Shown here: positions 5,983 to 28,800 of the stretch, piece by piece | Layout: each line of letters opens with the position of its first letter | Position numbering within the stretch: the first letter of the stretch is position 1 | Assembly (NCBI GenBank): GCA_000004695.1 | Contig: CM000150.2 | Location: 2,496,001 to 2,560,000 of the forward strand | Direction: 5' to 3' | DNA: 64,000 nucleotides | Source: Dictyostelium discoideum | Lineage: Eukaryota | Program-made: the position numbers and the translations under genes | The notes under the pieces: generated by a model | Database searches by the model: none | What the model saw: only the letters and a program-made list of their open reading frames with translations | Told to the model about the DNA's origin: nothing

Positions 5983-7317
5983 TTATAGTTTTATTTGGGG
6001 TAGATTTTTATCTACCTTTTGAAGTTTCTGGTTTATTTTGTCTTCTAACTGATCTTTACTTTGTTCGTTGTGTTGTTGGTCTTGTGTGTTTGTGGGGTTT
6101 TTTGATTTATTGATTTGTTTTAGAATTTCCTTGTTGAAGTTGTCTATATCTTCATCCATTTTTGTTTTTATGCTTTTTTGTCCATATTCACCCAATTTTG
6201 GTTTGACTGGTGTTTTGTTGGTCTTGTTTGTTTTGTCTTGTTGTTTCTTTTTTGGTGTGTTTAACAATTTACTTGGTGAATCGATAATTTTCGATGGTGT
6301 ACCATAGGTTGGGCTGAAACTCATGATATGTTTTATTGGAGAGGAGAAGAACCATTGATTTGAAGGGATTGAAAGTGGGAATTCTATTTTTCTTATTGCA
6401 TCAGTGTTTGGGCTGGTGAAGTCGAAGATATCATTTGCCTCTCTAAGTTTTTCTTCCGTTGTTAGTCCCTTTGTTTCGCCGTGTTGTTTTATTGGTGTAT
6501 TGTATGGAGATGGTGGTTCGATAGGTTTTTCTGATTTTGTTTTAATTTCTTGATTGTTTATCGATTGTGTATTGATCTCATTCTCTATTCTTGTTAGTTC
6601 ATCTACGTTTTCTAGTGATGCTTCTATTACCTTTTGAGCTGTATCATCTAGGGCCATAAATGTTTTATCATTAGATGAGGATGTGATTGGTGGGATAATG
6701 ATTGTTCTTTTTCCTTGTTTTGGTATTTGTTCTGATGTAGATTGTGGTTGTTGTTCATCTGATTGTTTTTTATTTTTGTTTTCTTCTTGATTTTCTGGTA
6801 ATGAGGTTTGATCTCTCCATCCTTTGTTGGAGTGTCCAATTAATGTTAGATTGTCTAGTTCAATGATAGTGTCAAATTCTTCTACGACTCTTTTCACTGT
6901 TTTGATAATTAGAGTTTCGCCTTTAATTTCTGATTTAATTAGTTTACATCCTTCATTTTCTATTACCCATTCTATTTCTGTGAGTGATTTATACCAATCA
7001 AAATCTGTATACATATTTTTTGGTCTTATAGTGGTTATAAATTGTCCTTTTAATTCTGCATCAAACATATTTACAAAATAGATTACTGTACTAATACTGT
7101 CTGTGAGAATTTTGAATGTATTATTACTTTTGATTAAAACATCTTTTTTGTCCAAACTTTTTTCTAAATCTTTTTTTATTTTATCGTCTGGTTCGTGATT
7201 GATGTTTATGACGTATTTGAATTGTTTTTTTTTTAATTGAGTTTTATCCACAATTTCGCTTATTTTTTGTAGGCATTTGTGTTGCTTAATATTTGTGGTG
7301 TTGTTTGTGATTTTCAT
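5983..7317 (-). CDS. retroelement ORF1-like protein (444 aa)
   Basis: Long ORF with moderate complexity (…HSNKGWRDQTSLPENQEENKNKKQSDEQQ…PSPYNTPIKQHGETKGLTTEEKLREANDIFDF…). Its N-terminus lies inside the duplicated module. No RT domain follows; about 290 bp of non-coding sequence, then poly-A. Confidence 0.5.
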   Translation of the reverse strand: MKITNNTTNIKQHKCLQKISEIVDKTQLKKKQFKYVININHEPDDKIKKDLEKSLDKKDVLIKSNNTFKILTDSISTVIYFVNMFDAELKGQFITTIRPKNMYTDFDWYKSLTEIEWVIENEGCKLIKSEIKGETLIIKTVKRVVEEFDTIIELDNLTLIGHSNKGWRDQTSLPENQEENKNKKQSDEQQPQSTSEQIPKQGKRTIIIPPITSSSNDKTFMALDDTAQKVIEASLENVDELTRIENEINTQSINNQEIKTKSEKPIEPPSPYNTPIKQHGETKGLTTEEKLREANDIFDFTSPNTDAIRKIEFPLSIPSNQWFFSSPIKHIMSFSPTYGTPSKIIDSPSKLLNTPKKKQQDKTNKTNKTPVKPKLGEYGQKSIKTKMDEDIDNFNKEILKQINKSKNPTNTQDQQHNEQSKDQLEDKINQKLQKVDKNLPQIKL

Positions 7318-7392
7318 TTTATTTTCTTTCTATCTTTTTTATTTTTCTTTAAAAAGTTAAAAATCTGGAAATTTTCTAATTAACTTGGTTCC

Positions 7393-7456
<64 letters not shown>
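7122..7456 (-). repeat. retroelement 5' module (contains ORF1 start) with long poly(T/A) tract
   Basis: Direct repeat of 5393..5692. Poly-T run 7381..7456 on the + strand. Confidence 0.6.
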
Positions 7457-7458
<2 letters not shown>

Positions 7459-7576
7459 TCTTTTTTATATGAAAAATGAAATAATCAAAAAAAGAGATTG
7501 TTGTTGTTGTTTGTTTTTTTCGATCTCTAATTAATTAATGACCTAATCTAGTAATTAAAATTTATTTATAACAAAT

Positions 7577-7649
7577 GCCCAGATAGCTCAGTCGGTAGAG
7601 CGCAAGGCTTTTAACCTTGTGGTCGGGGGTTCGAGCCCCCCTTTGGGCG
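7577..7649 (+). tRNA. tRNA-Lys (anticodon UUU)
   Basis: GCCCAGATAGCTCAGTCGGTAGAGCGCAAGGCTTTTAACCTTGTGGTCGGGGGTTCGAGCCCCCCTTTGGGCG. Cloverleaf with 7-bp acceptor stem (one G-T pair), D-arm GCTCAGTCGGTAGAGC, anticodon loop CTTTTAA, T-arm GGGGGTTCGAGCCCCCC, discriminator G. No intron. Confidence 0.9.
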
Positions 7650-7663
7650 AATTTTAAAATAAT

Positions 7664-7935
7664 CAACTTTAGATCAAGTGTTCGACTCTGTATATGAAAT
7701 TAAAAAAATGGTCAACTATCCATTTATATTTTAACCGACCAATATTTTCATGCTTGGAGAGATCACTTTTTTTTTTTTAAAATAAAAAAATAGATTAATC
7801 ATTTATCCCTGGAAATAAGCAATAATTAATAGTTTTAATTATATTTATGAGTTTTTAATTTTAAAATATAAATGGTTAGCTGACCATTTTTTAAAGACGT
7901 TTTTACGGATTCGAACACTTGATCTAAAGATATAT
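7664..7935. repeat. imperfect foldback inverted repeat (about 75-bp arms) immediately 3' of tRNA-Lys; each arm carries a B-box-like motif (probable ex-B box region)
   Basis: Arm 7668..7745 versus reverse complement of 7858..7932: ctttagatcaagtgttcgactc / ctttagatcaagtgttcgaatcc and aaaaaaatggtcaactatccatttatatttt / aaaaatggtcagctaaccatttatatttt. GTGTTCGA(C/A)TC resembles the pol III B box GGTTCGANTCC. The first copy sits about 30 bp downstream of the tRNA end, where Dictyostelium tRNA genes typically carry an extra B box. Confidence 0.45.
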
Positions 7936-8109
7936 TTATTTAAATAAATTTTTAAATATAACTTTCAAAGAAATTACATTATTGGTTTTAAATTTAGAAT
8001 TTAAATATATCTTTTTTCATGAAAAATCCAATTCAAAAAAAAATCTTTTTTCATGAAAAAAAATTATTATTTGATTGTAAATTTTGATTTTGATTTAAAA
8101 AATATTGAT

Positions 8110-8586
8110 TTACTTCTTTAAAGATTGGATGATGAGATGAATCAATTGAATATTCAGTGAAAATGAATCGACAACATTGATTTGTCCACTATCTAAAGAA
8201 TTGATAACGATTGATATTAATAGATTCATATTATTTAATAAAACATTAACCATTGTAATATTTAAATTTTTAAAATAATTGGAAATCTTTAAATGACCAC
8301 ATTGTGATGTAGAATAATTTAAAATGTTTGAAAGTAGGTCAATAACATCACCACTAATACCACTAGTATCACCACTATTACCATATCTAAATAATAAAAA
8401 AGATAAAGTTACATCTAATAAAAGTAAATCACCTCTTTTTGAAATTTCAAATGCCAAATATTTGCAATTAAAAAATTTCTTATTTTTAAAAATTTTAATG
8501 ATTTGATTTTTATCATTATTGTCACAAGTATTATCGCAATTGTTAAATAAATTTGAGTTCAACTTTTTCCCATTATAATATTCCAT
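8110..8586 (-). CDS. hypothetical ORF (158 aa) in unique sequence flanking the duplication; weak
   Basis: ORF MEYYNGKKLNSNLFNNCDNTCDNND... replaces what is exon 3 of the DNase II-like gene in copies 2 and 3. No recognisable domain. May be a non-coding remnant. Confidence 0.2.
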   Translation of the reverse strand: MEYYNGKKLNSNLFNNCDNTCDNNDKNQIIKIFKNKKFFNCKYLAFEISKRGDLLLLDVTLSFLLFRYGNSGDTSGISGDVIDLLSNILNYSTSQCGHLKISNYFKNLNITMVNVLLNNMNLLISIVINSLDSGQINVVDSFSLNIQLIHLIIQSLKK

Positions 8587-8699
8587 TAAAATTAAATCTG
8601 AATTATCAACTAAACATCTTTTTGGTTCAATTTCTAAATACTTATTCCCACATATATTATAAACGTTGTTTATTAATTGATTTAATTATAGTATCTGAA

Positions 8700-9723
8700 T
8701 TAATTTTGCCTATTTTTTAAGAATATTGGTTTGGTAATTTAAAAACACAATTTTAAAAATATAAATTTCTTACCAATTGTGACCATTTATTTAAATAAAT
8801 AACTCCATTCCATATATAAGGATCACCATCATTCTTTTTTTTAACCAAAATATATTTATTCATTAGACCATCCAATTATTTAAAAGTTTTGATAGTTTCT
8901 TTTGCCAAAATTTTACTCTCAATTACTTCCAACTTAATGACTCCTGTTTTTTTCTCGTCAACCTTTTTTTTGAGGTCTTCAGAATAGAAAGAGGCTGATG
9001 ATACCCTTTTTGCTCCAGAACCTGGAAAAACTGTATTAATGGTTTGAATATTTAAATTACCATTAATAATATACTTTGGAATAATATGAAGTTCTTCTTT
9101 TGACAAAGTTATACAAATTGAATGCTGCGCGTGTTGATTATCTAAAGTCCCTGTACCGTAATTATAAAGAGGATGATATAAGGTTCTGGAGATTTTGGAA
9201 CACTGTGAATTACATGAATTCCCCCTTCTTCATTCCAAATAAAAAATCCTTTTGCATGTGCCTTTTTTAACACATGAAACATATGAAAAAAAAAGAATTA
9301 ACAACAAATTATAATAAAAAAAAAATAAAAATAAAAATTTAAAATTAACACATACACTATTATCTCCACGGGTTGATCATTATAGGTCAAACTATTATAT
9401 ATAGTTTTACCAGAGCTATTTGGATAACTCTGTTTGTATGTTGATGCAATTGGGTTTGGCTCATGCGGATTCCTAATATTATAATAAGCTAATTCATTAA
9501 TCACCCTATTTAATTCATTATCAGTATAAATAGCACCTCTACTGTGACTCAATTGTTCTAAAACCCACCATTCAACATTCTTTTCTATTTTAACTCCATC
9601 TTTATCTATAAACACCTGACTTTTTGTATAAACATTTTTTGTTGTTATACATTTTGGAGGAACACAATAAATTTGTGATATTAATAAAAATAAATATAGA
9701 ACTATTATATATTTATTTTTCAT
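8700..9723 (-). pseudogene. DNase II-like gene, copy 1: 5' remnant (exon 1 plus disrupted exon 2), 3' exon lost
   Basis: Exon 1 (9298..9723) is intact, with signal peptide MKNKYIIVLYLFLLISQIYC and a GTATGT donor. Exon 2 begins AHAKGFFIWNEEGGIHVIHSVP, then frameshifts (…SPEPYIILFIITVQGL*) relative to copy 3. It carries an in-frame TAA where copy 3 has GAA (…KTFK* versus …KTFKELDG). After the exon-2 donor, the sequence diverges from copies 2 and 3 (duplication boundary near 8650-8700). Confidence 0.5.
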
Positions 9724-10017
9724 TTCTTAGATCTAGTATAAAAAAAAAAAAAAAAAAAATGAATCTATTTTTGCATTGAAATCTAAATTTGGATTTTTTT
9801 AAAAAAAAACGAACGAATTTTTGTTTCAGAAAAAAAAAAAAAAAAAAATTGATTCTTTTTTTTGTGAAAAAAAAAAAAAAAAAATGAATCTATTTTTGCA
9901 TTGAAATCTAAATTTGGATTTTTTTAAAAAAAAACGAACGAATTTTTTTTTTATTGTTTTCGAGCATCTCTACAAATCTTTTTTAATTTTTTTTTACGAA
10001 ACAGTTCTAAAATGTTT

Positions 10018-10049
<32 letters not shown>

Positions 10050-10113
10050 CTCAAAAAAAAATTATTAAATCTCAGAATATGTTTTTTTAAATCATATTTA
10101 AATTAAATAAAAA

Positions 10114-12047
10114 ATGGTAAAATATAAAATAATAATATCATTTTTATTTTTTATTTTATATTGCAATTGTTTCACATTTGGTAGTTACACATTTGATACA
10201 AAAAATTGGTCAACAAATGGTACACTATCATCATGTGTTTTTTATGATTTTGTAAATAACGATTATTATGATTTAAGAGCTATTGTCCACAATGATCATC
10301 AAGGTCCTTACAAAGCAAGTTTTCCTGCCGAACTTCCTGGTGGAATTCAAACACCTTATACAATGTATTTTAATCCTTGTTTTAATGATAATGTGTGTCC
10401 AGGTGGTCTTTCAGTAGGTTGTATGAGTTATGTGCAAAATTCACAAAAAATTCTTAATTCCGTTGGTTCACTTTCAGAGCCACATTCTATAACATTAAAT
10501 TCAGAAGGTATTTCTATTGAATATCAATCAGCTCTTTTACCATCAACAACATGTGCCTCTAATGGTAACCGTAGAACTTTGGTTTTATTTATTACTTGTA
10601 TCCCAACCGAAACATTTAAAATTATTGGTACTTATAACAGAAGAGTATTATGTGAACATACAATTTATATATCTTCAAAATTAGTTTGTAAAGATAGAGG
10701 AATATTATTTAATCAAGGTCTATTTTATGATTTAACACCAATGAAATTGTAAGTTGTTAAATTCTTTTTTATATTTTTTTTTTATTTTAATTTTTTTTTT
10801 TTTTTGTTTTTAATAAAAAAAAAAAAAACCAAACACGAAATTTTTTGTTTTTAATAAAAATTAAAATATCTAACCACTTTTTTTTCAATTTTTTATTTTT
10901 TTCTTCCCACAGATTAGCAAGCACTTCACACCAAATTACCAACAGTGACCAAACACAAGATATTCTCTTTAATTTATTCGGAAATGTAAATAGATGTGGT
11001 ACTTTCGGTACATCAACATTAAGTTATCAATCATGTATTTTAACAGTTGCTAATAAAGTGATCGATTATAAACTAGATTCAAGATATGCAACATCACCAA
11101 AATCAGTTATGGTAGGATCTCTCAGTCAACCAAGAACAATTACATTTACAAATGATGTAATAACCATAATTTATAGTTCAACAACTGGTTTCACAGAATG
11201 CTCATCAAATGGTAACAAATATTCATCAAAGTATATTTTAATTTGTGATCCATTCACAGAATATTATGTAGATAAATTTACATTAGAATCACAATGTATT
11301 TATCAAATTAAGGTTTATACTAAATACGCATGTCCAACATTACGTTTATTCAAACAAACACAATATTATGACCTTTCACCATTGATGTTGTAAGTATTCA
11401 ATTTATTCTTGTATTTCTTCAAAACAGTTATTAATTATTAATAATAAAATAAATAATAGGGATTCAACAAGAAATTATACAACAAGTCATATTACAGACG
11501 GATATGAGTATAATATTGTATTCAATATTGGTAATAAAGCACAAATGTGTAGCGATGCATTTAATGATTATTATTTTGCTTGTCAATATGATCCACGTTA
11601 TAAAAGTTTTAATCCACTTGCAAAGGCAAGTTTAGGTCAAAGAGTAACATTTGATTTAAATCAAGTTAAATTCGAATATACTTCACCAATGTCAGGTTGT
11701 TTAAGAACTTTTATTATTGTTTTAACTTGTGATGAAAACCAACATTATCAATTAGTTTCAACTTTAGAATCTCCTGCATGTGTATATACAGTAACAATTG
11801 AAACTAAATATGTATGTGAATCAACAATTTATTACAATAGATTCGACTATACATATTATGATATTACTCCAATAAAAACGTAAGTTTTAAATTAAATTTG
11901 AAATTAAATTTAAATATAAATAATAATATTAATAATATTAATAATCTTTATTGTCAACAACTAAAATATTAATTTAATTAGAGAAAAAGATAGTCCAAAT
12001 AAAATAGATATTGTTGTTGGTGGATATCCATATAGAGTAAGTAAATT

Positions 12048-12100
<53 letters not shown>

Positions 12101-15100
12101 AACAAATATTTTTCTAATAGCTTTTTTATGGTATCGGTAATACTGTTGATTATTGCGGAGAACAAGTGGGATCAGTCCCTGGTGTAGATTATCAAGCTTG
12201 TCAATATCTCAGTGGTCTTGTTATTCAAGTCGGTAGTTTAAAAAATACATCAATGATTCTTAATAAGGATGGTATAAGTATATATCATACCTCACCATTC
12301 GATTTAACCAAAGTGTGCCAAAATACAAGATATCAAAGAGTAAACATTTTAAATATGGTATGTGATCCAACAGCAACAAATGTTGTGGTCAGCGCTACTG
12401 AGACTGCCAACAATTGGGCATGTGAATATACAATCGAAATTAAAACTAAATATGCATGTTCAATTAATTATGCACCAGTATTACCAGTTGTTGGAAATCC
12501 ATGTTTATACAGTTGTACACCACCAGGTGCTTTAAATCCAAAAGCTATAGTTAGTGTACTTTTAAATTTAGGTGTTTGTTTCTCAGAGATTAATAAATAT
12601 GGTACAGGTGCACAATCATTACTTAATATATTTAAAGATACTTGGGTTTCAAATCACAATGGGTATGATGATTGGATGGGTGGACAACTTTATTCACTAT
12701 TATTAACAGGTAAACCACAGTCAACAATTTCACCATATGTTATTTCAATTACACATGATAATTTATGTACATATGGTGCCGATGGGTTAAGTAAAGCAAA
12801 AAATTCAATCAATGATTTTCTTACTATTACAAATGATCTTCTTGAAATTTCAAATCGTGCAGTTAGTTTAACCGTTACCAAATATACATATTCAGATGGA
12901 GCAATTACATTATCAACACATAAACTTTTATCAACATCAACTGGAGGTCTTGCAATTATTAAATACAAAAATTTGCTATGCTACTATTCAATAGTCCCAA
13001 ATTTACAAACTTTAATTATTGGGAGTTATTTGCTTTCTTGCCCATATTATTCACTACCAACTATTACAGTGCACAGTTTAACACCATCAATAGGGAAAGT
13101 TGGAGATACTATCACAATTAATGGTCAAAATTTAGATACAGATATATATGATGTTTATTTCAACATTATTGATGACAACAGTAAAATTAAAGCAACAATA
13201 ACATCAAGAACCGTAAATTTTGTAAAAGTAATTGTTCCAAATGGTTTTGGTAATGCATTAGTCTACACTCAAAATATACTTAATCCAACTACCTCCGATA
13301 AACTTTCATTTTCATATCCATCACCAACGATTGTCAAAGTAATTAGTCAACCATTTAGTACAGGTATCATCAATAGATTCTTTGTTATTGGTCAAAACCA
13401 TCGTTCTTTAATAACCAATATTGTTATTAATCCATACATCGATAATATTGAAAAAGAAGCAATTTATTGTGAAATTGAAAAGTATTGTCCAAGTTCATCA
13501 AAAATTCCATCGATTTCAGGATCAGCAGTAGGTCATCCATGTATTGATTCAACAGTTTACTCTGAGAATTCCCAGTTTTTCGATTATTCCAAGTATGATG
13601 TTTTTGTTTGTATCAAATCATCATTAGGTGTTGGAAGTGGTATCATTAAATTCCCATCACAAACATTTACATTTGCATACTCTTATAAAGCACCTCTCTT
13701 ATATTTTGTACCACCTGGCATTCGTATTCCAACTGATGGTGGTAGTTTTCAATTGGATGGTAAAAACTTTCCGCCAACACAAGAAATCATTGATCTCGGT
13801 TTAAACACACCTGTAATCATTTGGAATAATGATAATTTTGTTACATTCAAAGGAACAAATCTTGCAAATACCAATATCAATTGGAAGAGTTCGAAATCGA
13901 TTTTATGTGTTGCACCACCTGGTTTCGGTGGACCATTCATCGTTACAGTAACTGTCGGTAAACAAGTGTCAAAGACTATATATCCAAGTGATTTAGATGA
14001 AAATCCAACAAATTATAATTTATATTATTATCCCCCAGCAGTTGTTGACATATCAGAAGTTTCAACTGATGGTGGTGAAGTTATAATAAAAGGTACAAAT
14101 TTTATTCCAGCCTCGCTTAAAGATCAAATTAATAATCAACCAATAATCGGTTCACCTCATTCAGTAGAGTTTAATAATGTTTTATCTTCATCATGGACAT
14201 GGATTGATTCAACACATGTAAAAGCCATCGTACAAAAAGGTATTGGTACAATCTCTACAATTGTAAATGTTGGTGGTCAAAGATCTGATTTAAATCCAAT
14301 TCCTGTAAATTTTTACAAAAGACCTGAACTAGATAATAAAAAATATGAAAACTTTGCAAATAGTGATATTTTAATAACTGGTTCTAATTTTATACCAGTT
14401 GGTGTTTCAGCAGGTTCATCAAGTTCTGTCAAAATCGGAGGTATTCCCTGTAACTCTGTAACATGGGTAGATTCAAAATCTGTTATTTGTAATGTGCCAA
14501 TTGGAACTGGTGATAATTTAAATATCCAAGTAACAGTTGGAGGTCAACAAACCGAATTAAATGATTATTTCTCATATTTAGGGCAATGCGATTTCCTCTG
14601 TAGCGATTTATCAAATTTAGTAAGTTTTTAAACATTTTAATTACAGAAAAAAAAAAAAAAACTAAAAAATACTAATTTATTATCATTTTTATCTCAAAGG
14701 AATTAGCAAAAGTTATTGGGGAAAATAAAAAAGATTTAAAGAGTACTCTTTTATTAACAGGTGTATGTTTAGAACAAATTGAGCAATATAATTTCACAGA
14801 TATTAATGATGAAATTGAATCAAGTTGGATTGAAAACTCAATTATTGATGATTGGACAAGTGGTAAATTCTATAACTATTTCAAATCATCAGAATCATAC
14901 TCAACAGTTAAAACACTTGCAAAATATATTACACCAAAGAATCCATGTATTTATGAAAATAAAAGAGTAAAGAATTCATTAGATTACCTTTTTGAAATCA
15001 ATTCAGATATTTTCCATTTAATTGAACTTTCAATTTCATCAAAAATCAGTTATCCAGATTCACCATATGAAACTTATTTCTATGAATCATCAAGCAACCC

Positions 15101-18100
15101 AGAGTATGGTCTTTCAATTATTACATTTGATTCAGCAATTTGTAGCTTTACAGAATCAACTATTCAAGACTATCAAAGTGGAAAAGTATTACAATCATGT
15201 TCAATCATTCCAATTATAAATCAAGTAATTAATCCAACAACAACACTTCAAGCACCATATCAATATTCACTTACAATAATTGGTAGATTATTTGATAGTT
15301 CAACTAGAATATTCTTATCAGGTTATGAATGTCCAATCATTGGTAATATCGCTACTAATCAAAATGATTATATTCAAACTCTTAGTTGTTCAGTACCACC
15401 AGAAATCGAATCATACTCGGCCTCTCAAATTACTTTTTACAATGATTATAGTGAAAATAATATATATAATTTCTTGTTTTATTTTAAAAAATCATTCTTT
15501 TTTAAATATCCAATTTCAACAGTAACTCAAATTCAATACCCATCAAGTGGTCCAATTCAAATGAATTCTGAAATTAAAGTAATTGGTTTTAATTTCTTCC
15601 CATATGGTATTACAAATCCAAGCATTCAAGTTTTTATTGATGATCTTGAATTAACTGATACTATATTTGGATTAACAAGCATAAATGGAGTTGATTCATT
15701 TTCATTTATTGCTTCTGGTTTAGGTTCTTTAAAGTAAGTGAAAAAAAAAAAATTAAAAAAAAAAATTTATAAATATTTATTAATATTTAAAAATATTTTT
15801 TTACAGTTTCATTCGATTATTTTATAGTAATAGTTTACCGATGTTTATAAACGATGATATTAATTTAGAATTCTCATTTGAAAGACCAATTATTAATAGT
15901 ATATTACCAACAAATGGAGATTACAATACAAAAGTTACAATTAATGGTAATAATTTTAGAAAAGGTCAATCAGTAAAAATTGGAGACATATTAGTAAATG
16001 ATATTGAATTCATTTCAAACCAAGAGATTATTGCTTCAGCACCATTTGGATTTATTAGTGGACTTGTAGTTGTTTATTCAGATGATCAATTCAGTTTAGA
16101 AGAAATATCATTTAGTTATACTTCACCAATTATAGACCAAGTTATTCTTTCAAATTATGAATCAAAATTAAACACAACAGGTACAAATTATTTCACAGTA
16201 ATAGGTAGAGGTTTAGGTACATACATTGCAGAACAAGTCGATATTATTATCAATCAAGAGTTTTATGCAAGTTGCGAATTCGATTTCTGTGAAAGTTTAG
16301 AAATTATTGAAGATATAGATATAAAAGATCAAGGAATTTGTCAATATTTAAAATATAATAAATATCAATATATCAATGAAAACTTTGATATATTAAATTG
16401 TATTTTAACCGATTCGATTGGTAAAGATAAATCAATCAGTATCAAAATTTCAGAATTCCAAAACCAAACTTTCACCTACTCTTATTATGAACCATGGATT
16501 GAAAAATTAACACAAAACTCTTCATCAGCAAACACTGATGGTGGTGAAGTTATCGTTATAAATGGTTACAACTTTTTACCATTCGAAAATTTAAGTCCAT
16601 ACTATGAAAACAATGAAACTATTGCACAATGGTTAAATCAATCAGAAATATTAATTGGTGAAAGCTATCTTTGTCAATCAATTAATTGGACCAATTCCTA
16701 TGAATTAAATTGTACAATCCCACCAGGAATTGGTGTTAATCATACAATCATTGTAAAAGTAGGCCTTCAATCATCAAATCATACTGATTATTTGTATTCT
16801 TACGATTCACCAAACCTTGATACAATCAATAACTCCACTGGAAATGAAACACATTACTATTCTTCAACAGATGGTAACAATGAAATTATAATAACAGGTT
16901 ATAACTTTATTCCAAAAGAGTTATCAGATCATTACAACCAGAATGAAAATAAAACCATAAATTCAATACTATTAGGTAAACAATATTGTAATGAAACTAT
17001 TTGGATTAATTCAACAACAGTCAAATGTAAACCAATAGCAGGTATCGGGTCAAATTACAAAATTATCATTAAAGTTGGTAATCAAGATTCAAACGAAACC
17101 GTTTACTTCTCATATGAGAAGCCAATTTTAGATTTAAAGAATTACACAGGTTCAACAAATGGTAATACTGAAATTACAATAACAGGTATCAACTTTATTC
17201 CAAAAGAATTAGCAGATAATAATAATTTCAATCAATCAGAGAACTATATAATGATTGGTGATAATAAATGTAACGAAACTATTTGGATCAACTCAACAAC
17301 AGTTAAATGTAAACCAATATCAGGTACTGGTATCAATCATAGAGTTATAATAACAGTTGGTAATCAAAACTCAAATGAAACGGTCTACTTTTCATATGAT
17401 AAACCAATTTTAGATATTAAAAACTATAGTAGTCCAACTGATGGCAATACTGAAATCACAATAACAGGTGAAAACTTTATTCCAAAAGAATTAGCAGAAA
17501 ATAATAATTTCAATCAATCAGAGAACTATATAATGATTGGTAATAATGAATGTAATGAAACTATTTGGATCAATTCAACAACAGTTAAATGTAAACCGTT
17601 AGCAGGTATCGGGTCAAATTACAAAATTTTCATTAAAGTTGGTAATCAAGATTCAAATGAAACCGTTTACTTCTCATATGAGATGCCAATTTTAGATTTA
17701 AAGAATTACACAGGTTCAACAAATGGTAATACTGAAATTACAATAACAGGTATCAACTTTATTCCAAAAGAATTAGCAGATAATAATAATTTCAATCAAT
17801 CAGAGAACTATATAATGATTGGTGATAATAAATGTAATGAAACTACTTGGATCAATTCAACAACAGTTAAATGTAAACCAATATCAGGTACTGGTATCAA
17901 TCATAAAGTTATCATAACAGTTGGTAATCAAAACTCAAATGAAACGGTCTACTTTTCATATGATAAACCAATTTTAGATATTAAAAACTATAGTAGTCCA
18001 ACTGATGGAAATACTGAAATCACAATTACAGGTGAAAACTTTATTGAAAATTATAATCAAGAAAAACATAATGAAAATGATAATTTCGTTAGAATTGGTG

Positions 18101-20856
18101 AAAATAAATGTAATGAAACAAAGTGGATAAATTCGACAACAATTAAATGTAAAATAATTCAAGGTATTGGTTTAGATTATAAAATAGTTGTAACAGTTGC
18201 CAATCAACAATCAAATGAAAATGTTTTCTTTTCATATGAAAAACCAATGATTGACAGTAAAACACTATTAGCATCAACCAGTGGCAGTGAAACTATTAAA
18301 ATTACAGGTACTAATTTCATTCCATCAACTTTAGTAGAACATTACAACAAAGAAGAAAATAAAGATAACTCAATAAATTCAGTTACTATCAATAACGAGT
18401 TTTGTAATGATATTACATGGATTAGCTCAACAGAACTAACATGTAAACCATTAGCAGGAGTTGGAACCAATCATACTATATTCATTTTGGTTGGAACTCA
18501 AAAATCAAATGAAGAAAACTCATTCTCATATAAACCTCCGAATATTGAAGAGTTTAAATACTACACAGCACCAACACATTCCAATAAAATTATTACTATA
18601 ACTGGTGAAAACTTTATTCCAATCGAATTATTATCAAAAGACAACAGCAATAGTTCAGTACTTATTGATAATATAAAATGTGAAGAAATCAAATGGATTG
18701 ATTCAACAAAAGTTTCATGTCAAGTTCCAGTAGGTCAAGGTAAAGATTTATCGATTAAAGTTAAAATTGAAAATCAAGAAACTGAAGAAAATCAACAATT
18801 TTCATATGATAAACCATTTATTCAATCAATCAATCCAAATAAAGGAAGATGTAATCAAGAAGTATTAATTACAATTCAAGGTGATAGTTTTGGAAAGAGT
18901 GATCAACTAATTAAAATTGGTAATAACGAATGTCAAGATATTCAATTCTATCCAAATCATACATTTACATGTAAAGTTCCAATCGTGGAGAATTCAATTG
19001 AATCCATTGTTTTATTAAATGTTGGCAATCAAGATTCAAACGATAACATTACATATAAATACTATGGACCACCAGAAATTAAAAGTATTGGTTTACCATC
19101 ATATCTTTCATTCAAAGGTGATGATTTAATTACAATCATTGGTAATAACTTTATAGAATATGATGATGGATCTGATGAAATTGTTAAATTTAATAATGAA
19201 CCAACAACTATCATTGAAAACACAGAAACATACATTAAAATTAAAACTCTTAGTGGTGATGAATTTAATGTACCAATTGCTGTAGAATTAAATGGTCAAA
19301 TAAGTAATACAGATACTTCATTCGTTTACTCAAATCCAATAATTGAAAGTGTAACACCATCATCAAGTAGCTCAAAATCAAATACTAATATCATCATTAA
19401 AGGACATAATCTTGGGTATTTAACAAACACTCCCAAAATTACAATTGGAAGTAGTAATTGTTTAAATATCAAAACTATATCTCCAAATGAAATTCATTGC
19501 ATCGTTATGAAATCAAGCGCAGGCACTAAACAATTAACATTAACCTATGAAAGTTATCAACCAACCTATTCACAATTCACTCACAAAAACGATGATGACA
19601 GTGATAGCCACGATGATGATGATGATGACCATAAAAACAATAATGGACCAAAAAACACCATATTAAGTATTCTTGGAGGTATAATTGGAGCAGCAGCATC
19701 AGCAGCCGTAAGTGGATTTATAACAAGCATTTTCGGTGGTGCGACATCAGTAGCCACAGCAGCAGCAACAGCAACAGCAGCAGGTACTGCGGTAGCAGCA
19801 GCAACTACAGCGTCAACAGCAACAGCTATTGCCGGTGCAATTACCGAAGGTGTTGCAGTGGCCTTTACAGGGGTATCAGTAATAGCAGCAACAGCAGGTG
19901 GTGTTGTTATTACTTCAATTGTAACAGCAACAGCCATCCTTATTTCAGGTGGAAGTACACAATCACCAACTCCAACCATAGCTCCAACTATTTCACCAAC
20001 TCCAACGCCAACCGATAACTATTGGGTAAGATGTATGGTCGATTATTCAAGATTAACTTTACAAGTCGATAATCTTTACGGTCAAGATATAGTATGTATT
20101 GATGGTAATGGAATTTCATCAATTTTCAACGAATCATTCTCTTGTAAACCTGATCTTATTAACGATGGTATGATATGTGCTCAACAACATCAAGATGGAA
20201 CAAATTCAACAACCACATTTGGTAATTCAACATTAATTTGTCATATTGACTCAACAAAATCATGTGAAATTTCACCACCATTCATCATACCATCCGATCC
20301 AATTGAAGATGATGAATATTCAAATATTCTAGAATGTCAATATAATCTCATTGAAAATTCATTATCAACACACTCTAATAATAGTCCACTAAGATGTTAT
20401 AATAATGAAACTGAAAATTACTTCATTATGAATACTACACTTTCATGCTCAAAAGATGAATCATTAAGTCAAGATAAAGATACGATTTCTTGTTTAGCAG
20501 ATACAGATGACACTCAAATCTTTTTCTATAAGAACTCAATTACATGCATTACAGATTATCCATACTATAGATGTACAATGAAATCTCAACCATCACAAGA
20601 TGATAACATAATTCCAAAACCAACATTACCACCAATTCCATCAATTGATGATGATTCCACATGTATTTATGATTCAGCCAATTCATATTCAATAGATCTC
20701 CAACTAACGACTGGAACTAATGCTAAATGTCCAAAAAATGAAAAAGAACTTCGTTATGATCTTTCAACTTCTCTAACATGCACTGATTATATCACACTTA
20801 AAAACTCCACTTATTCAATTTCATATTCAAATTACATTTGCATTAAAACAAAATAA
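10114..20856 (+). CDS. giant secreted/membrane glycoprotein with 4 CI-MPR-like (MRH) repeats plus IPT/TIG repeat array plus Ala/Thr hydrophobic block plus Cys-rich C-terminal domain; copy 1, 7 exons: 10114..10748, 10913..11389, 11460..11879, 11982..12036, 12121..14619, 14700..15733, 15807..20856 (about 3389 aa)
   Basis: Signal peptide MVKYKIIISFLFFILYCNC. Exons 1, 2, 3 and the start of exon 5 each encode a roughly 150-aa Cys-containing domain ending in a C-x-Y-x-h-x-h-x-T-K-Y-A/V-C motif (CIYQIKVYTKYACP, CVYTVTIETKYVCE, CEYTIEIKTKYAC, CEHTIYISSKLVCK). Each is followed by YDLSPL/YDLTPM/YDITPI, the pattern of cation-independent M6P-receptor repeats. All introns are GTAAGT...AG, AT-rich, and phase-consistent. 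Exons 5-7 encode many roughly 96-aa beta-sandwich repeats (…TDGNTEITITGENFIPKEL…CNETIWINSTTVKCKP…VGNQ.SNETVYFSYEKP…) typical of IPT/TIG domains, with N-glycosylation sites throughout. C-terminal part: acidic HDDDDDDH, roughly 100-aa GC-rich Ala/Thr hydrophobic low-complexity block, PT-rich linker, then a roughly 290-aa Cys-rich domain. Confidence 0.65.
17118..18050 (+). repeat. tandem array of near-identical 288-bp units (alternating A/B variants) encoding IPT/TIG-like repeats inside exon 7
   Basis: Units starting EKPILDLKNYTGSTNGNTEITITGINFIPKELADNNNF… (A) and KPILDIKNYSSPTDGNTEITITGENFIPKELAENNNF… (B) recur A-B-A-B with almost identical nucleotide sequence. Paralogue copy 3 (38951..43393) has exactly one A-B pair fewer (1480 versus 1671 aa in the last exon). 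Confidence 0.7.
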
Positions 20857-20895
20857 AAACAATTAAAAAATTTTAAAAAACAAAATGATATAATA

Positions 20896-20974
20896 ATTTA
20901 ATGAAATAATTTAATTACTATTTTTACTATTTTTTTTATTTTCAAAAAACTGTAATTAAATTATTTCATTAAAT
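20896..20974. repeat. 23-bp perfect inverted repeat in the convergent 3' intergenic region between the receptor-like gene and the next DNase II-like gene
   Basis: atttaatgaaataatttaattac (20896..20918) and gtaattaaattatttcattaaat (20952..20974) are exact reverse complements separated by about 33 bp. The same structure is retained downstream of copy 2 (about 29655..29735). Confidence 0.5.
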
Positions 20975-21194
20975 CATTATGTCACACCACCCAAAATTCA
21001 ATTCTGAAAACTTTTTTTATTTAATTACCCTTAAGAAAAAATTAAATGTGAAAATAAATGTTATATTTATTTTAGTTTTGTTTTTTTTTTTAAATTATCA
21101 TTAATAATAATGATGCACCATTTGGTATTATCTAATTTTGAAAACTAAAAAAAAAAAAATTTATTTTTGGAATTAGTTAAATTTAAAAAAAAAT

Positions 21195-23300
21195 TTAAAT
21201 TAAAATATAATTAATACTTACACCTTTGGTATATTCACCCAAAACTTTTGTAAATTCCTTAATGGAATTGATGTTTTGTAGATCACCATGTCTATTTTCA
21301 GTTAAGAGAATACAATAGATAAGATGATCTTGGCAATCTGGATGATATTTAATGATTTTTGAGTCTGTATCACTTGGAAAAGCTTTACATATTTTTTTAT
21401 TAATTTCATTATAATCCTTATGACCTTTTTCGCTATCACTTTGATCGCCTTCGATTTTATTTGGGAATTTAAATGGTACTAAATCATTGATTTCAACTTC
21501 TTTCAATTGAATGATGTTTTTATTTTTAATAAATTTCAATTTTTCATAAAGTTCTTTTACTAAATCAATATTTTTTAAATCGATATATATCTTATCTGGG
21601 AAAGGTGTGAGTATTGATGTTGGTTCGATAATGGTATTTTGTGTTAGAGCAGTTACCTTTTTATTATCTCTTGATGAGGTAAGTGTAAATGTTGATTCAA
21701 CATAGATATCTTTAAACAATTGGTAAGATTTGGATTTTTCAAAGCTACAAGTGACATCATCATTATCACATAAAATAATTTCCCCATTGATTGATGGAAA
21801 CACATTGAAATCGAATAACTCTGATTTGTATATATTTTGATCCTTAAGTTGGGTTAATAGTGGAATATAAACATTGTCATAACCATAGTTATATTCATTT
21901 GAAAATAATTTATCTTCATCTTTTTCATTATTGTAAACGATATTAAATGGATTCAAATGATAGTATTTTTCATCATCTCCATAACCTTTTACCTTGGTTT
22001 CAAAGTTTAGCTTTCTGTTACCTAAAACATTAGATCATTTGGATATTTTTCTATTAATTCGTTTAAATTCAACTTTTGACCTGCAATGCTATTTAATCTT
22101 AAAGAAGCTTTTCTAAGATATTGACCATCCTCTGGGTGTCTAATTATACCAACTCTTCTGTAAAAGTATTCAGAAAGATATTTCATTTCGTCACTGCAAA
22201 AAGAACCACCTCCACGTGCCTCTTGCCTTCCATGCCAATTTAAATCACCAAAGCAAATAGTCCCACCACCGCCACCGCTATATGCTTTATCCATATAATT
22301 GATTTGATAAGACATTTTTGAATGGTCACTTCCTGAATCAGAGCTAATAACTGTTGACCAAGGTGTTTCGAATCTGTAAGAAAGATATATTGATACAACT
22401 GCTGGAGACATTTCATTTTTTCCTTTTTCCATCTTTGTTTGAGTATGGACCATTGTTTTAAAATTATTACCATTTTTAAAACTATAGATGTAATGCCAAA
22501 GTATAAAAAATTTAATTTTTTCCTTGTGAGTATTTTCAATTTTATCACTATACTCTTTATAAAGGTGTGTATTTGTTGTTTGAATGAAGTAATCCCCTTT
22601 ATTTTTACTCTCATAAATTTTATTATAGTGAACATTTGTTTCATGAGCTGTATCTGATGATGTAATATTTTTGTTTAGAATTAAATCTGCCTATTTTAAG
22701 AATGTAAGTTTGATGATTTATTAACACAAATTTATAATTAAAATTACTTACCAATTGTGACCATTTATTTAAATAAATAATTCCATCCCATATATCAGGA
22801 TCAACTTTATTCTTTTTTTTAACAAAAATATTATCACTCATTAGATCATCCAATTCTTTAAAAGTTTTGGGAATTTTTGTTTCTAAAATTGAACTATCAA
22901 TTTTTTCCAACTTAATGACTCCTGAGCTTATCTTTTCAACCTCTGTTTGAAGATTTTCGGAATAAGAATCGGCTGATGATACCTTTTTAACCTTTTTACC
23001 ATTTCCTGTTGAAACTGTATTAATGGTTTGAATATTTAAATTACTATAAATAATATACTTTGGAATAATATAAAGTTCTTCTTTTGACAAAGTTATACAA
23101 ATTGAATGTTGAGCATGTTGATGATTTAAAGTATTTTTATCGAAATTAAAAAGAGGTTCATATCCTGTTTCTGGAGATCTTGGAACACTGTGAATTACAT
23201 GAATTCCCCCATTTTCATTCCAAATGAAAAATCCTTTTGCATGTGCCTTTTTTAAATAAATAAATTAAAAAAAAAAAATATGTTAACAAATAATGATAAC

Positions 23301-23337
<37 letters not shown>

Positions 23338-23734
23338 AATAATAAACACAAACACTATCTTCACCACTACTGAGCTGATCATTATAAGTCAAACTATTAT
23401 ATATAATTTTGTTGTCAGATTTATTTGGTAAACTCTGTTTGTATGTAGATGTAATAGGGTTTGGTTCTTTTGGATCTCTAATATTATAATTTGCAATTTC
23501 ATTTATCTCTGAACTTCCTCCTTTTAATGTGTTATCAGTATAAATAGCACCTTGACTGTGACTTAATTGTTCTAAAAACCACCATTCGACATTCTTTTCT
23601 ATTTTAACTCCATCCTCAAATACTTGACTATCCTTGTAAATATTTTTTGTTGTTATACATTTTGGAGGATCGTTACAATAAATAGGTGATATTAATACAA
23701 ATAAATATAAAAAAATAATATATTTATTTCTCAT
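21195..23734 (-). pseudogene. DNase II-like gene, copy 2: 3 exons present but reading frame broken in exon 3
   Basis: Exon 1 (23336..23734, signal peptide MRNKYIIFLYLFVLISPIYC) and exon 2 (…AHAKGFFIWNENGGIHVIHSVPRSPETGYEPLFNF…MSKEELYIIPKYII…) are intact. In exon 3 a 5-bp deletion relative to copy 3 (near 22030) shifts the frame. This gives ORFs 22022..22453 (…DHSKMSYQINYMDKAYSGGGGGTICFGDLNWHGRQEARGGGSFC…KYPNDLMF*) and 21195..21956. Confidence 0.5.
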
Positions 23735-24164
23735 TTTCTTAAGTCTAATGTTATAATGTTTGTTTCAATTTTTTAAAATTGGGTGTGTTTTTGCGAAAAA
23801 AAAAAAAAAAAAAAAAAAAATGGCTTTGTCGTCAACAAAAAAGAAAAAAAACTAAAATTGGATCATTTAAAATAAAATAAAAAAACGAACGAAAATATTT
23901 TTTTTTAATCGTTTTTAGATGGTTTTACCACTCCTTTGATTATTGAAAATCTTTTTTAAATATTTTTAGATTTTTTTTTTTTTATTTTTTTCGACCCATT
24001 ATTTTATAAAAAAAAAAATAATAAAAATTACCCCCACAAACCGCTTTTTTTTTTTTTTTTCACAAAGCCTGGTTTTTAATTTTTTTAACACTTTTTGGCT
24101 TTGCATCTTTATCGCTTAAAATACGGTTTGGAAAATACAACATTTTTTTTTTAATCAACCATAC

Positions 24165-24196
<32 letters not shown>

Positions 24197-24221
24197 TCGT
24201 ATTGAAATTAAAAAAAAATGG

Positions 24222-25808
24222 TAAAATTTTAAATAGTTATATCATTTTTATTATTTATTTTATATTTTAATTGTTTCACATTTGGTAGTTACACATTTGA
24301 TACAAAAAATTGGTCAACAAATGGTACACTATCATCATGTGTTTTTTATGATTTTGTAAATAACGATTATTATGATTTAAGAGCTATTGTCTATCCTGAT
24401 CATCGAGGTTCCCACAGAGCAAGTTTCACAGCTGAGCTTTCTGGTGGAATTCAAACACCATATACAATATATTTTAATCCTTGTTTTAATGATCATATGT
24501 GTCCAGGTGGTCTTTCAGTAGGTTGTATGCAAAAATAGAGGAGTATTATTTAATCAAGGTCTATTTTATGATTTAACACCAATGAAATTGTAAGTTATTA
24601 AATTCTTTTTCATATTTATTTTTTTATATTTTTTTTTTTTAAAATAATTATCAAAAAATAAAAAAAAAAAAGAACCAAACACAAAATTTCAAAATAAAAA
24701 AATCTAATCTTTTTTCACTTTTTTTTATTTTTTTTTAATTTTTTTATTTTTATTTTTTTTTCCCACAGATTAACAAGCACTTCACACCAAATCACCAATG
24801 ATGACCATACAAAAGATATTCTCTTTAATTTATTCGGAAATGTAAATAGATGTGGTACTTTCGGTACATCAACATTAAGTTATCAATCATGTATTTTAAC
24901 AGTTGCTAATAAAGCGATCAATTATAAACTAGATTCAAGATATGCAACATCACCAAAATCAGTTATGGTAGGATCTCTCAGTCAACCAAGAACAATTACA
25001 TTTACAAATGATGTAATAACCATAATTTATAGTTCAACAACTGGTTTCACAGAATGCTCATCAAATGGTAACAAATATTCATCAAAGTATATTTTAATTT
25101 GTGATCCATTCACAGAATATTATGTAGATAAATTTACATTAGAATCACAATGTATTTATCAAATCAAAGTTTATACTAAATACGCATGTCCAACATTACG
25201 TTTATTCAAACAAACACAATATTATGATCTTTCGCCATTGATGTTGTAAGTATTCAATTTAATTAAAAAACTTTTTTGGTGTTTTATTCTTTTGCGCTTA
25301 TTAATTATTAATAATAAAATAAATAATAGGGATTCAGCAAGAAATTATACAACAAGTCACTTTACAGACGGATCTGAGTTTTTTATTGTATTCAATATTG
25401 GTAATAAAGCACAAATGTGTAGCGATGCATTAAATGATTATTATTTTTCTTGTCAATACGAACCACGTCAAAAATTTTTTTATCCACTTGCAAAGGCAAG
25501 TTTAGGTCATAGAGTAACATTTGATTTAAATCAAGTTAAATTTGAATATACTTCACCATCAACAACAACTTGCTCATCAAATTCCTATAAAAGAGATCTT
25601 ATTGTTATTTTAAATTGTGATGAAAACCAACATTATCAATTAGTTTCAACTTTAGAATCTCCAACATGTGTATATACAATAACAATTAAAACTAAATATG
25701 TATGTGAATCAACAATTTATTACAATAGAATTAACTATACCTATTATGATATTACTCCAATAAAAACGTAAGTTTTAAATTAAATTTAATTATAAATTAT
25801 AAATTATA

Positions 25809-25874
<66 letters not shown>

Positions 25875-28800
25875 TATAACTTTATTAACAACCAAAACTA
25901 TTAATTTTAATTAGAACAAAAGATAGTCCAAAAACTGTAGATATTGTTGTTGGTGGATATCCATATAAAGTAAGGGATAATTTTTAAATTTTTAAATTTT
26001 TTTTTTTTTTTTTTTTTTTTTTTGACAAACACCAAACGTGTGTGAAACTAAAATTTAAATATTTTATATATATTTAAAAATGGTTACTAACTTTACTTTA
26101 TTAATTTTTTCCAACAGCTTTATTACGGTATAGGTAATACTGTTAATTATTGCTCAAATCAAGTGGAGTCAGTTCCAGGTGTTGATTATCAAGCTTGCCA
26201 ATATCTCAGCGGTCTTGTTATTCAAGTCGGTAGTTTAAAAAATACATCAATGTATATAAGTAATAATGGTATAAGTATATATCATACCACACCATTTGAT
26301 TTAACCAGAGTATGCCAAAATACAAGATATCAAAGAGTGATACAACAGCAATTAACGTTGTGGTCAGCGCTACGGAGACTGCCAATTATTGGGCATGTGA
26401 ATATACAATCGAAATTAAAACCAAATATGCATGTCCAATTAATTATGCACCAGTATTACCAGTTGTTGGAAATCCATGTTTATACACTTGCACACCACCA
26501 GGTGCTTTAAATCCAAAAGCTATAGTTTGTGTACTTTTAAATTTAGGCTTGTTTCTCAGAGATTAATAAATATGGTACAGGTGCACAATCATTACTTGTT
26601 ATATTCAACAATACTTGGGTTTTAAACCACAACGGATATGATGATTGGATGGGTGGACAACTTTATTCACTATTACTAACAGGTAAACCACAAACATCGA
26701 TTTCACCATATGTTAGTTCAATTACACATGATAATTTATGTACATATGGTACCAATGGGTTAAGTAAAGCAAAAAATTCAATCAATGATTTTCTTACTAT
26801 CACAAATGATCTTCTTGAAATTTCAAATCGTGCAGCCAGTTCAACCGTTACCAAATATACATATTCAGATGGAGAAATTACATTATCAACACATAAACTT
26901 TTGTCAACATCAACTGGAGGTCTTGCAATTATTAAATACAAAAATTTGCTATGCTACTATTCAATAGTTTCAAATTTACAAACTTTAGTTATTTCGAATT
27001 ATTTGCTTTCATGTCCATATTATTCACCAACTATTACAGTGTTCAGTTTAACACCATCAACAGGGCAAATTGGAGATATTATCACAATTAATGGTCAAAA
27101 TTTAGATACAAATAGATATGATGTTTATTTCAACATTATTGATGACAACAGTAAAATTAAAGCAACAATAACATCAAAGTAATTAGTCAACCATTTAGTA
27201 CAGATATCATCAATAGATTCTTTGTTATTGGTCAAAACCATCGTTCTTTAATAACCAATATCACCATTTATCCATATATCGATAATATTGAAAAAGAAAC
27301 AATATATTGTGAAATTGAAAAGTATTGTCCAAGTTCATCAAAAATTCCATCGATTCCAGAATCAGCAGTAGGTCATCCATGTATTGATTCAACAGTTTAC
27401 TCTGAGAATTCTCAGTTTATAAGGTACAAATTTTATTCCAGCCTCGCTTGCAGATCAAATTAATAATCAATCATTAATTGGTTCACCAAATTCAGTCACG
27501 TTTAATAATGTTTTATCTTCATCATGGAAATGGATTAACTCAACACATGTAAAAGCCATCGTACAAAAAGGTATTGGAGCAATCCTTACAATTGTAAATG
27601 TTGGAAGCCAAAGTACTGAAACGAGTCCATATCCCGTAATTTTTTATAAACAACCTGAATTAGATAATAAAAAATATGAAAACTTTGCAAATAGTAATAT
27701 TTTAATAACTGGTTCTAATTTTGTACCAGTTAGTGTTTCAGCAGGTTCATCAAGTTCTGTCAAAATCGGAGGTATTCCCTGTAACTCTGTAACATGGGTA
27801 GATTCAAAATCTGTTATTTGTAATGTACTAATTGGAACTGGTGATAATTTAAATATCCAAGTAACAGTTGGAGGTCAACAAACCGAATTAAATAATTATT
27901 TCTCATATTTAGGGCAATGCGATTTCCTCTGTAGCGATTTATCAAATTTAGTAAGTTTTTAAACATTTTAATTACAGAGGAAAAAAAAAACTAAAAAATA
28001 CTAATTTTTTACATTATAATCTCAAAGGAATTAGAAAAAGTTATTAGAGAAAATAAAAAAGATTTAAAGCAATAGTTCAGTACTTATTGATAATATAAAA
28101 TGTGAAGAAATCAAATGGATTGATTCAACAAAAGTTTCATGTCAAGTTCCAGTAGGTCAAGGCAAAGATTTATCGATTAAAGTTAAAATTGAAAATCAAG
28201 AAACTGAAGAAAATCAACAATTTTCATATGATAAACCATTTATTCAATCAATCAATCCAATTAAAGGAAGATGTAATCAAGAAGTATTAATTACAATTCA
28301 AGGTGATAGTTTTGGAAAGAGTGATCAACTAATTAAAATTGGTAATAACGAATGTCAAGATATTCAATTCTATCCAAATCATACATTTACATGTAAAGTT
28401 CCAATCGTGGAGAATTCAATTGAATCCATTGTTTTATTAAATATTGGCAATCAAGATTCAAACGATAACATTACATATAAATACTATGGACCACCAGAAA
28501 TTAAAAGTATTGGTTTACCTTCACATCTTTCATTTAAAGGTGATGATTTAATTACAATCATTGGTAATAACTTTATAGAATATGAAGATGGATCTGATGA
28601 AATTGTTGTTAAATTTAATAATGAACCAACAACTATCATTGAAAACACAGAAACATACATTAAAATTAAAATTCTTAGTGGTGATGAATTTAATGTAACA
28701 GCAACAGCCATCCTTATTTCAGGTGGAAGTACACAATCACCAACTCCAACCATAGCTCCAACTATTTCACCAACTCCAACGCCAACCGATAACTATTGGG

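Follow-up and report, generated by a model that had tools for sequence, protein, structure and literature searches.

How did two paralogous genes of one tandem cluster come to differ by two whole protein domains? The question is raised by a 64,000-nucleotide (nt) stretch of the Dictyostelium discoideum genome (GCA_000004695.1, contig CM000150.2, positions 2,496,001 to 2,560,000 of the forward strand), which is termed the window here and to whose first letter all coordinates refer unless a locus of another assembly is named. The window is AT-rich (G+C content ~25%) and contains a 9-14 kb segment in three tandem copies, each of which carries one large gene on the + strand. The genes of segment copies 1 and 3, below simply copy 1 and copy 3, encode giant proteins with MRH-like modules and IPT/TIG domains, and their last exons contain five and three closely related TIG units, respectively. 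We conclude that the two surplus domains of copy 1 were probably gained in place by out-of-register exchange between repeat units, followed by later gene conversion between copy 1 and copy 3.

~8700-22730: segment copy 1
22731-31502, + strand: segment copy 2, a degenerate TIG gene with five internal deletions
31450 to ~43940: segment copy 3

The + strand genes were rebuilt with canonical GT-AG introns of 70-190 nt, and the products were then looked up by exact match. Lengths of the products are given in amino acids (aa).

10114-20856, + strand: copy 1 gene, alpha-type MRH + IPT/TIG, 3382 aa, 7 exons, intact reading frame
10114-10748, 10913-11389, 11460-11879, 11982-12036, 12121-14619, 14700-15733, 15828-20856, + strand: exons of copy 1
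15828-20856, + strand: exon 7 of copy 1, coding for 12 TIG stretches, an acidic run, a hydrophobic stretch rich in Ala, Thr and Gly, and a tail rich in Cys
33046-43393, + strand: copy 3 gene, beta-type, 3197 aa, 7 exons
33046-33680, 33861-34337, 34424-34861, 35054-35111, 35240-37735, 37813-38846, 38938-43393, + strand: exons of copy 3

Tandem Repeats Finder revealed a head-to-tail repeat of period 282 at 16987-18248 in copy 1 (4.5 copies) and at 40094-40791 in copy 3 (2.5 copies). When exon 7 was cut at the conserved ...FSY[DE] domain ends, five related units in the order U0-A-B-A2-C were delimited in copy 1 (16807-18240) and three, in the order U0-A-C, in copy 3.

16807-17118, + strand: copy 1 U0, TIG domain of 104 aa, the type from which the 3' third of B derives
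17119-17400, + strand: copy 1 A, 94-aa TIG domain
17401-17682, + strand: copy 1 B, chimeric TIG domain, seen in copy 1 only
17683-17964, + strand: copy 1 A2, second copy of A
17965-18240, + strand: copy 1 C, 92-aa TIG domain
18241-18534, + strand: copy 1 D, the unit after C; in copy 3, D likewise follows C
39914-40783, + strand: copy 3 array, with U0 at 39914-40225, A at 40226-40507 and C at 40508-40783

The units of copy 1 start 282, 282, 282 and 276 nt apart, all of these distances being divisible by three. Global alignment of the two last exons showed one large gap of 564 bp (188 aa), equal to 2 x 282 bp, whose placement at 17121-17684 of copy 1 is the aligner's choice and can slide within the repeats. 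The reading frames are open through both arrays, and the length difference consists of whole units, in frame. Identity was found to be 98% between A and A2 (6 differences in 282 sites), 84-85% between A and B, 82% between B and U0 and 80% between B and C. A2 has two private changes (K->M at the first codon and I->T) and otherwise equals unit A of copy 3, and C matches B over the first 81 nt (27 aa) only, after which the two diverge. Scored singly, the units reached 42.0 (U0), 52.8 (A), 58.9 (B), 51.9 (A2), 54.4 (C) and 51.0 (D) bits against the Pfam TIG profile (cut-off 20.9), and each has kept 2 Cys and 5 N-glycosylation sequons (N-x-S/T). The profile match and the conserved Cys pair point to an Ig-like fold of the units.

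This anatomy can be set against an earlier reading of the DNA made from its letters alone (the sequence-only reading). It was right to place the array in exon 7, which is exon 7 of 7 in the gene models, and to see a copy-number difference between the paralogues, found here as five versus three units with one large alignment gap. The unusually high identity between units that it described was also recovered at the nucleotide level, with 80-98% in the array versus 64-75% for every other TIG unit pair in the exon. The dimensions had to be corrected: the unit, given as 288 bp, is 282 bp (94 aa) long, and the indel, given as 576 bp, is 564 bp. An A/B pair had further been described as occurring twice in copy 1 and once in copy 3; B is single and present in copy 1 only, and the supposed second B is C.

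To trace the origin of B, 17 units were aligned, five from copy 1 and three each from copy 3, p34 (XP_002649199.1, a chromosome 1 paralogue) and cfA and cfB, two tandem genes of D. cf. discoideum (locus L015), and the class of B was scored at each variable column. B turned out to be a mosaic of three parts.

17401-17481, + strand: B segment 1, 81 nt, C-type 5' end, alignment columns 1-81, 79/81 matching C
17482-17594, + strand: B segment 2, 113 nt, A-type middle, alignment columns 82-200, 108-110/113 matching A
17595-17682, + strand: B segment 3, 88 nt, U0-type 3' end, alignment columns 201-288, 84/88 matching U0

Columns 1-72 of B hold 13 diagnostic sites shared with C only, and zero A-only or U0-only sites. 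Columns 82-156 hold 15 A-only sites together with one U0-only site (column 148), and columns 205-288 hold 11 U0-only sites; four sites are private to B. Read in order, the labels form 5 runs, a value of 5 or less being reached in 0 of 200000 permutations (minimum, 15). The 5' breakpoint lies in the 9-mer AACTTTATT common to A and C (17473-17481), and the 3' breakpoint lies within 17551-17598, a CNETIWINSTTVKCKP-coding core of ~48 nt that is near-identical in A and U0. Both breakpoints occupy equivalent positions of the 282-bp unit. B is a recombinant junction unit. It is nevertheless expected to form an intact domain, because it has the best Pfam TIG score of all units and has kept the two Cys and the five sequons.

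Repeats of 282 bp that sit in three near-identical segmental copies are classically prone to misassembly. We considered such an artefact as the source of the difference, in which an assembler would have spuriously expanded copy 1 or collapsed copy 3. Exon 7 of copy 1 and that of copy 3 were each found as an exact substring of a second assembly, GCA_054883475.1. Its locus L013, which holds copy 1, was aligned to 9867-30862 of the window (~21 kb) with 0 mismatches and 19 gap columns, and its locus L001 matched 36013-56922 at 99.77% and holds the copy 3 array byte-identical. The differences between GCA_054883475.1 and the window are length changes only, and the full spliced products of 3382 aa and 3197 aa are annotated there exactly. 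The zero substitutions place GCA_054883475.1 in the same laboratory lineage as AX4, and the length-only differences would fit an independent long-read assembly of it. With five versus three units retained there without one difference, with six sites distinguishing A from A2 and with B being unique, expansion or collapse by an assembler is ruled out, unless GCA_054883475.1 was copied from the reference; both reading frames are, in addition, open across the arrays. An assembly error, the doubt attached to the sequence-only reading, is thus extremely improbable.

The direction of the change was read from related genes. Unit T3 is separated from unit D by 1434 nt (T3 end to D start) in copy 1 only, versus 870 nt, corresponding to three units, in copy 3, p34, cfA and cfB, that is, in 4/4 of the other genes examined. 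From outside the AX4 lineage, this sample includes the units of the two D. cf. discoideum genes only, both of them three-unit genes; p34 is situated in a second cluster (locus L014 of GCA_054883475.1), 1.1 Mb away on the same contig. A sliding-window comparison of the 5' half of the gene revealed copy 1 to be 4-20% divergent from copy 3, p34 and cfB, which are mutually 0.6-9% apart. For the 3' part of exon 7, the nearest relative of copy 1 is cfA (4.0-6.5%, versus 7.6-9.1% to the beta genes) and that of copy 3 and p34 is cfB; cfA and cfB differ by 10%. The genes thus fall into two lineages, alpha with copy 1 and cfA and beta with copy 3, p34 and cfB, both of which predate the species split. 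Because the alpha orthologue cfA has three units, the five units are best read as a derived gain in the copy 1 lineage of D. discoideum after its separation from D. cf. discoideum. In a homologue from D. firmibasis (2462 aa, 36% identical), a T3-like unit leads directly to D- and E-like units, with no units of the U0, A or C type, so that the U0/A/C group is itself a younger expansion.

The opposite polarity, in which five units are the older state and copy 3 and the other genes lost two of them by recombination between A and A2, is very unlikely. Deletion between direct repeats that are 98% identical is easy, B seems older than its flanking units, and unit A of copy 3 can be read as an A/A2 recombinant, with the A base at column 2 and the A2 bases at columns 162, 180, 230 and 237; column 170, however, disrupts this simple pattern. 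Moreover, the loss must have recurred in copy 3, p34, cfA and cfB, thus in both outgroup paralogue lineages, or have spread by conversion across loci and species, and B carries derived bases specific to the U0 lineage of copies 1 and 3. A deletion between A and A2 by one crossover was likewise tried as the origin of copy 3 and rejected, as the outgroups argue against it.

A gain in place by out-of-register exchange, the reading preferred here, would have started from a three-unit array, U0-A-C. Homologous exchange via the conserved unit cores would have added two units (564 bp, in frame), resulting in U0-A-B-A2-C. Synthesis or exchange would have passed U0, A and the first ~77 nt of C and then switched one unit back, from C to A, at the 9-mer AACTTTATT. 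About 100 nt further on, a second switch by one more unit, from A to U0, would have occurred inside the ~48-nt CNETIWINSTTVKCKP-coding core, after which the process would have continued onward through A, which thereby became A2, and C. Written out, the scheme would be U0, A, C[1-~77] -> A[~77-~180] -> U0[~180-282], A, C. Because the unit measures 94 codons and both switches are in register, the frame and the domain boundaries would be kept, and the encoded protein would be longer by two intact TIG domains. Copies 1 and 3 would later have undergone gene conversion, which evened out the flanking units but left the length difference in place. As to the molecular route, be it replication slippage or crossover, three histories would fit equally well: a single episode of replication in which the template switched back twice, two unequal exchanges or conversions in succession, and a two-unit duplication followed by an A conversion patch. 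A single one-step duplication of two units was rejected, since B would then consist of C and U0 sequence only, yet its middle is A-type.

Later conversion is indicated by the divergence along the gene. A tract of low divergence (0-3%) between copy 1 and copy 3 extends over 15828-19314 of copy 1 versus 38938-41850 of copy 3. Values are 0-1.5% in 16628-19027, compared with 4-20% in 10114-14337, the 5' half, and 8% at 19425-19824. In the region of U0, copy 3 is 5-7.5% divergent from its close relative p34 and shifted towards copy 1, and the nearest relative switches along the gene, to cfA for copy 1 and to p34/cfB for copy 3 in the 3' part. These comparisons clearly show that mid-exon 7 of copies 1 and 3 has undergone interlocus gene conversion.

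The bases of B allow the order of events to be estimated. In segment 3, B has the derived bases 216C and 256G in common with U0 of copies 1 and 3, where p34, cfA and cfB have T and A. The same segment retains the ancestral bases 205T and 264T, as in U0 of p34 and the cf genes, where U0 of copies 1 and 3 has A and C. The C-type segment of B retains 45C, as in C of p34, and 63A, as in the cf genes, and unit A of copy 1 retains 230G (as p34) and 237A (as the cf genes). Because the flanks are only 0-1.5% divergent between copies 1 and 3 while B keeps bases that its donors have lost, it can be suggested with moderate confidence that the flanking units were homogenised between copies 1 and 3 after B arose, and that the unpaired A-B stretch escaped. 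The event would accordingly be placed, again with moderate confidence, after the D. cf. discoideum split and before the last conversion between copies 1 and 3. For the sequence-only reading, this means that recombination between repeats is supported by B, with its two breakpoints at equivalent unit positions, and gene conversion by the tract across mid-exon 7, but that calling the recombination recent goes too far, given the 6/282 differences between A and A2, the 4 private changes of B and the ancestral bases retained. The array may, as that reading also supposed, vary in length in populations; the only other assembly with copy 1 is of the same lineage and has the identical array.

The same data bear on a different source, namely that B, or the whole five-unit array, was imported by interlocus gene conversion from a paralogue outside the sample. 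This family does exchange sequence, as the contrast between mid-exon 7 and the 5' half of copies 1 and 3 demonstrates; the bases 45C, 205T and 264T of B are missing from its donors in copy 1; and at least one further full-length gene, of 3195 aa, lies beside locus L014, outside the array sample. All four of the other arrays examined have three units, however, 3195 aa is the length expected for a three-unit gene, and the derived 216C and 256G of B are found only in U0 of copies 1 and 3, which fits an origin in place and an intermediate date. On balance, import seems unlikely.

Against a gain in place with the history given above, several points have to be weighed. GCA_054883475.1, being of the same lineage, is a check on assembly error and not on natural variation. 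The sampling of the family is partial: the 3195-aa gene was left out, and the alpha gene of the second cluster no longer has the array region. An external donor for B is possible. The dating is based on about half a dozen informative sites in a gene-converting family, where single sites may mislead. Column 63 points to an older origin than columns 216 and 256 do. Finally, between one complex replication event and two sequential exchanges, the data favour neither.

With regard to the gene products, that of copy 1 was found to be identical to KAM9941430.1 (ACTFIT_007973) of GCA_054883475.1. The AX4 model of this gene (XP_002649194.1/C7FZX2, 3380 aa) deviates in one respect, an alternative acceptor whose use makes the protein 2 aa shorter. 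The copy 3 product is identical to KAM9941427.1 (ACTFIT_007970) of the same assembly, so that the 3197-aa, 7-exon model is also that of the newer annotation, versus 3225 aa in the AX4 model, DDB_G0270480/Q55EA6. The latter reads through parts of two AT-rich introns, 33681-33860 and 38847-38937 (TKHKIKKQKNLIFFHFFFF..., YIRLFYS), and omits GIGSNYKIIIK within unit U0 (39914-40225); judged by these features, it looks mis-modelled.

The proteins, which would be secreted or membrane-bound, have an N-terminus resembling a signal peptide as well as MRH-like modules, the latter called from the UniProt name of Q55EA6 and a weak Pfam PRKCSH_1 match. They also contain an acidic run, a hydrophobic stretch rich in Ala, Thr and Gly, and a tail rich in Cys. 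Pfam IPT/TIG (PF01833) was matched by 15 stretches in the whole copy 1 protein; in exon 7, there are 12 in copy 1 and 10 in copy 3. A further length-variable site between the two genes is intron 3, which is filled by a perfect (AAT)41 microsatellite (34896-35018) in copy 3 and has only a short interrupted TAATAATAT run (11921-11945) in copy 1. Knockout of DDB_G0270480 (copy 3) gave a wild-type result in a dedifferentiation study (PMC7190356). A literature search found no description of the MRH+TIG gene family or its array.

Degenerate relatives of the two genes were recognised inside and outside the window. The five deletions of segment copy 2 correspond to 10425-10684, 13207-13334, 13578-14087, 14741-18646, which comprises the whole array, and 19272-19920 of copy 1, and the aligned blocks beside each deletion overlap by 1-5 bases only. 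Copy 2 is nearer to copy 3 in its 5' part (up to 98.8%) and, by a small margin, nearer to copy 1 in its 3' part. In GCA_054883475.1, copy 2 is annotated as a 1321-aa TIG protein and a 142-aa fragment. In an alpha-type gene at the second cluster of that assembly (L014 1-5924), whose identity to copy 1 is 96.7-97.4%, the regions corresponding to 13477-13953, 15470-19144 (again the whole array) and 19778-19993 have been lost. Because this gene is degenerate, copy 1 is the only intact alpha gene seen in the lineage.

Homology searches were made with exon 7, with the array region and with the product of exon 6; apart from distant dictyostelid matches, they returned only DDB_G0289225. This protein (chromosome 5, 528 aa) shares 88% identity with copies 1 and 3 between the exon 7 start and U0, after which its sequence leads directly into the Cys-rich tail; it is a further truncated family member, whose deletion begins inside the array. 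For a 684-aa neighbour of the second cluster, the protein cluster holds AX4 and the same-lineage assembly only. A contig search for DDB_G0289225 and a 423-aa DNase II-like open reading frame (ORF) found no encoding contigs.

All three TIG copies are part of a 35.2-kb block (8698-43942) that is absent at this place from GCA_054859355.1, GCA_054859385.1 and GCA_054859235.1, two of them labelled D. discoideum and one D. cf. discoideum. In these three assemblies, 43944 is joined straight to 8697, and a gene of 867-945 aa spans the junction; in the window, this gene is split 35 kb apart on the - strand (45646-43945 and 8655-7939), with ~50 codons missing. In a fourth assembly (L012, D. cf. discoideum), no block sequence was seen, its match to the window ending at ~44858. 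Because the block ends match L014 positions 7959 and 20880, both within DNase II-like genes, the block is probably a lineage-specific insertion copied from the second cluster; a deletion common to all other assemblies would be less likely.

Further features of the window are as follows.

21012-23741 and 29788-32504, - strand: DNase II-like genes, one 3' of each of copies 1 and 2
5986-7317, - strand: ORF of 444 aa, with the same sequence as a D. discoideum protein encoded many times over on 14 contigs (DDB_G0269094 among numerous others)
46016-46876, - strand: ORF, letter for letter DDB_G0269322 of AX4, chromosome 1 (4.92 Mb)

The DNase II-like assignment was obtained from Pfam (DNase_II, 24.4 bits), and the gene is annotated likewise in GCA_054883475.1. 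The giant gene of copy 3 has no DNase II-like gene after it. The alternation of TIG and DNase II-like genes is repeated at the second cluster L014 (DNase II-like genes at 6308-8999 and 20844-23474) and also at the D. cf. discoideum locus L015 (DNase II-like gene at 6777-9438); giant MRH+TIG gene and DNase II-like gene recur together as one unit. A gene for an MRH-domain protein hence adjoins one for a lysosomal-type nuclease, a neighbourhood from which a functional tie is conceivable only. The 444-aa ORF lies just beyond the left end of the inserted 35-kb block and probably belongs to a retrotransposon; a similar gene of 439 aa in another strain (L009) adjoins a reverse-transcriptase gene.

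Among known systems, yeast FLO and ALS adhesins and bacterial adhesins of the Big/Bap type have coding repeats that change in copy number by unequal recombination or slippage. The array described here resembles them in its head-to-tail units divisible by three, the high identity of neighbours, the in-frame gain of units and the recombinant junction unit, as well as in the signal peptide, the many N-glycosylation sequons and the paired Cys. It differs in that each repeat comprises a complete folded Ig-like domain of 94 aa rather than a short Ser/Thr-rich linker repeat, and in that one gain event is documented, between paralogues rather than alleles. Textbooks describe both the gain of whole units through out-of-register recombination and the concerted evolution of tandem paralogues. 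As in concerted evolution, the middle of exon 7 is near-identical in copies 1 and 3 though their lineages predate the species; unlike there, the 564-bp difference has not been erased, and the unpaired A-B stretch keeps older bases. The array is therefore a clean new example of a known process and not a new kind of system.

Dictyostelium also has the Tgr ('Tiger') family of transmembrane IPT/TIG proteins, including the allorecognition pair TgrB1/TgrC1, with an architecture of a single-pass membrane protein of ~900 aa and few TIG domains. Organism, IPT/TIG arrays and clustered, rapidly changing families are common to both. In contrast to the Tgr proteins as commonly described, those of the present family measure 3200-3400 aa. 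They have MRH-like modules at the N-terminus, 15 or more TIG domains and a tail rich in Cys, and each of their genes has a DNase II-like partner gene. We make no claim that they belong to the Tgr family.

For users of the AX4 genome, the arrays of copies 1 and 3 are confirmed as real, and the DDB_G0270480 model is seen to differ from a simpler 7-exon model, including a skipped stretch in U0. More generally, the locus provides a well-preserved, datable case of a multidomain extracellular protein gaining whole Ig-like domains, in which the junction unit still displays both exchange points and outgroup genes give the direction. It also illustrates that a length difference can outlast later conversion between paralogues, the unpaired stretch becoming a small archive of older bases. 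The longer stalk may also have a functional effect. On account of the two ancient lineages, the extra 35-kb block, the ongoing conversion and the gain and loss of domains, one could suppose that the giant MRH+TIG genes and their DNase II-like partners form a fast-evolving, strain-variable cassette in which TIG number and sequence are under diversifying selection, but we regard this as quite unlikely. If it were true, the TIG domains would be selected for recognising partners, prey or non-self, as in Tgr allorecognition, and the gain of two domains would have altered reach or specificity functionally rather than being neutral repeat noise.

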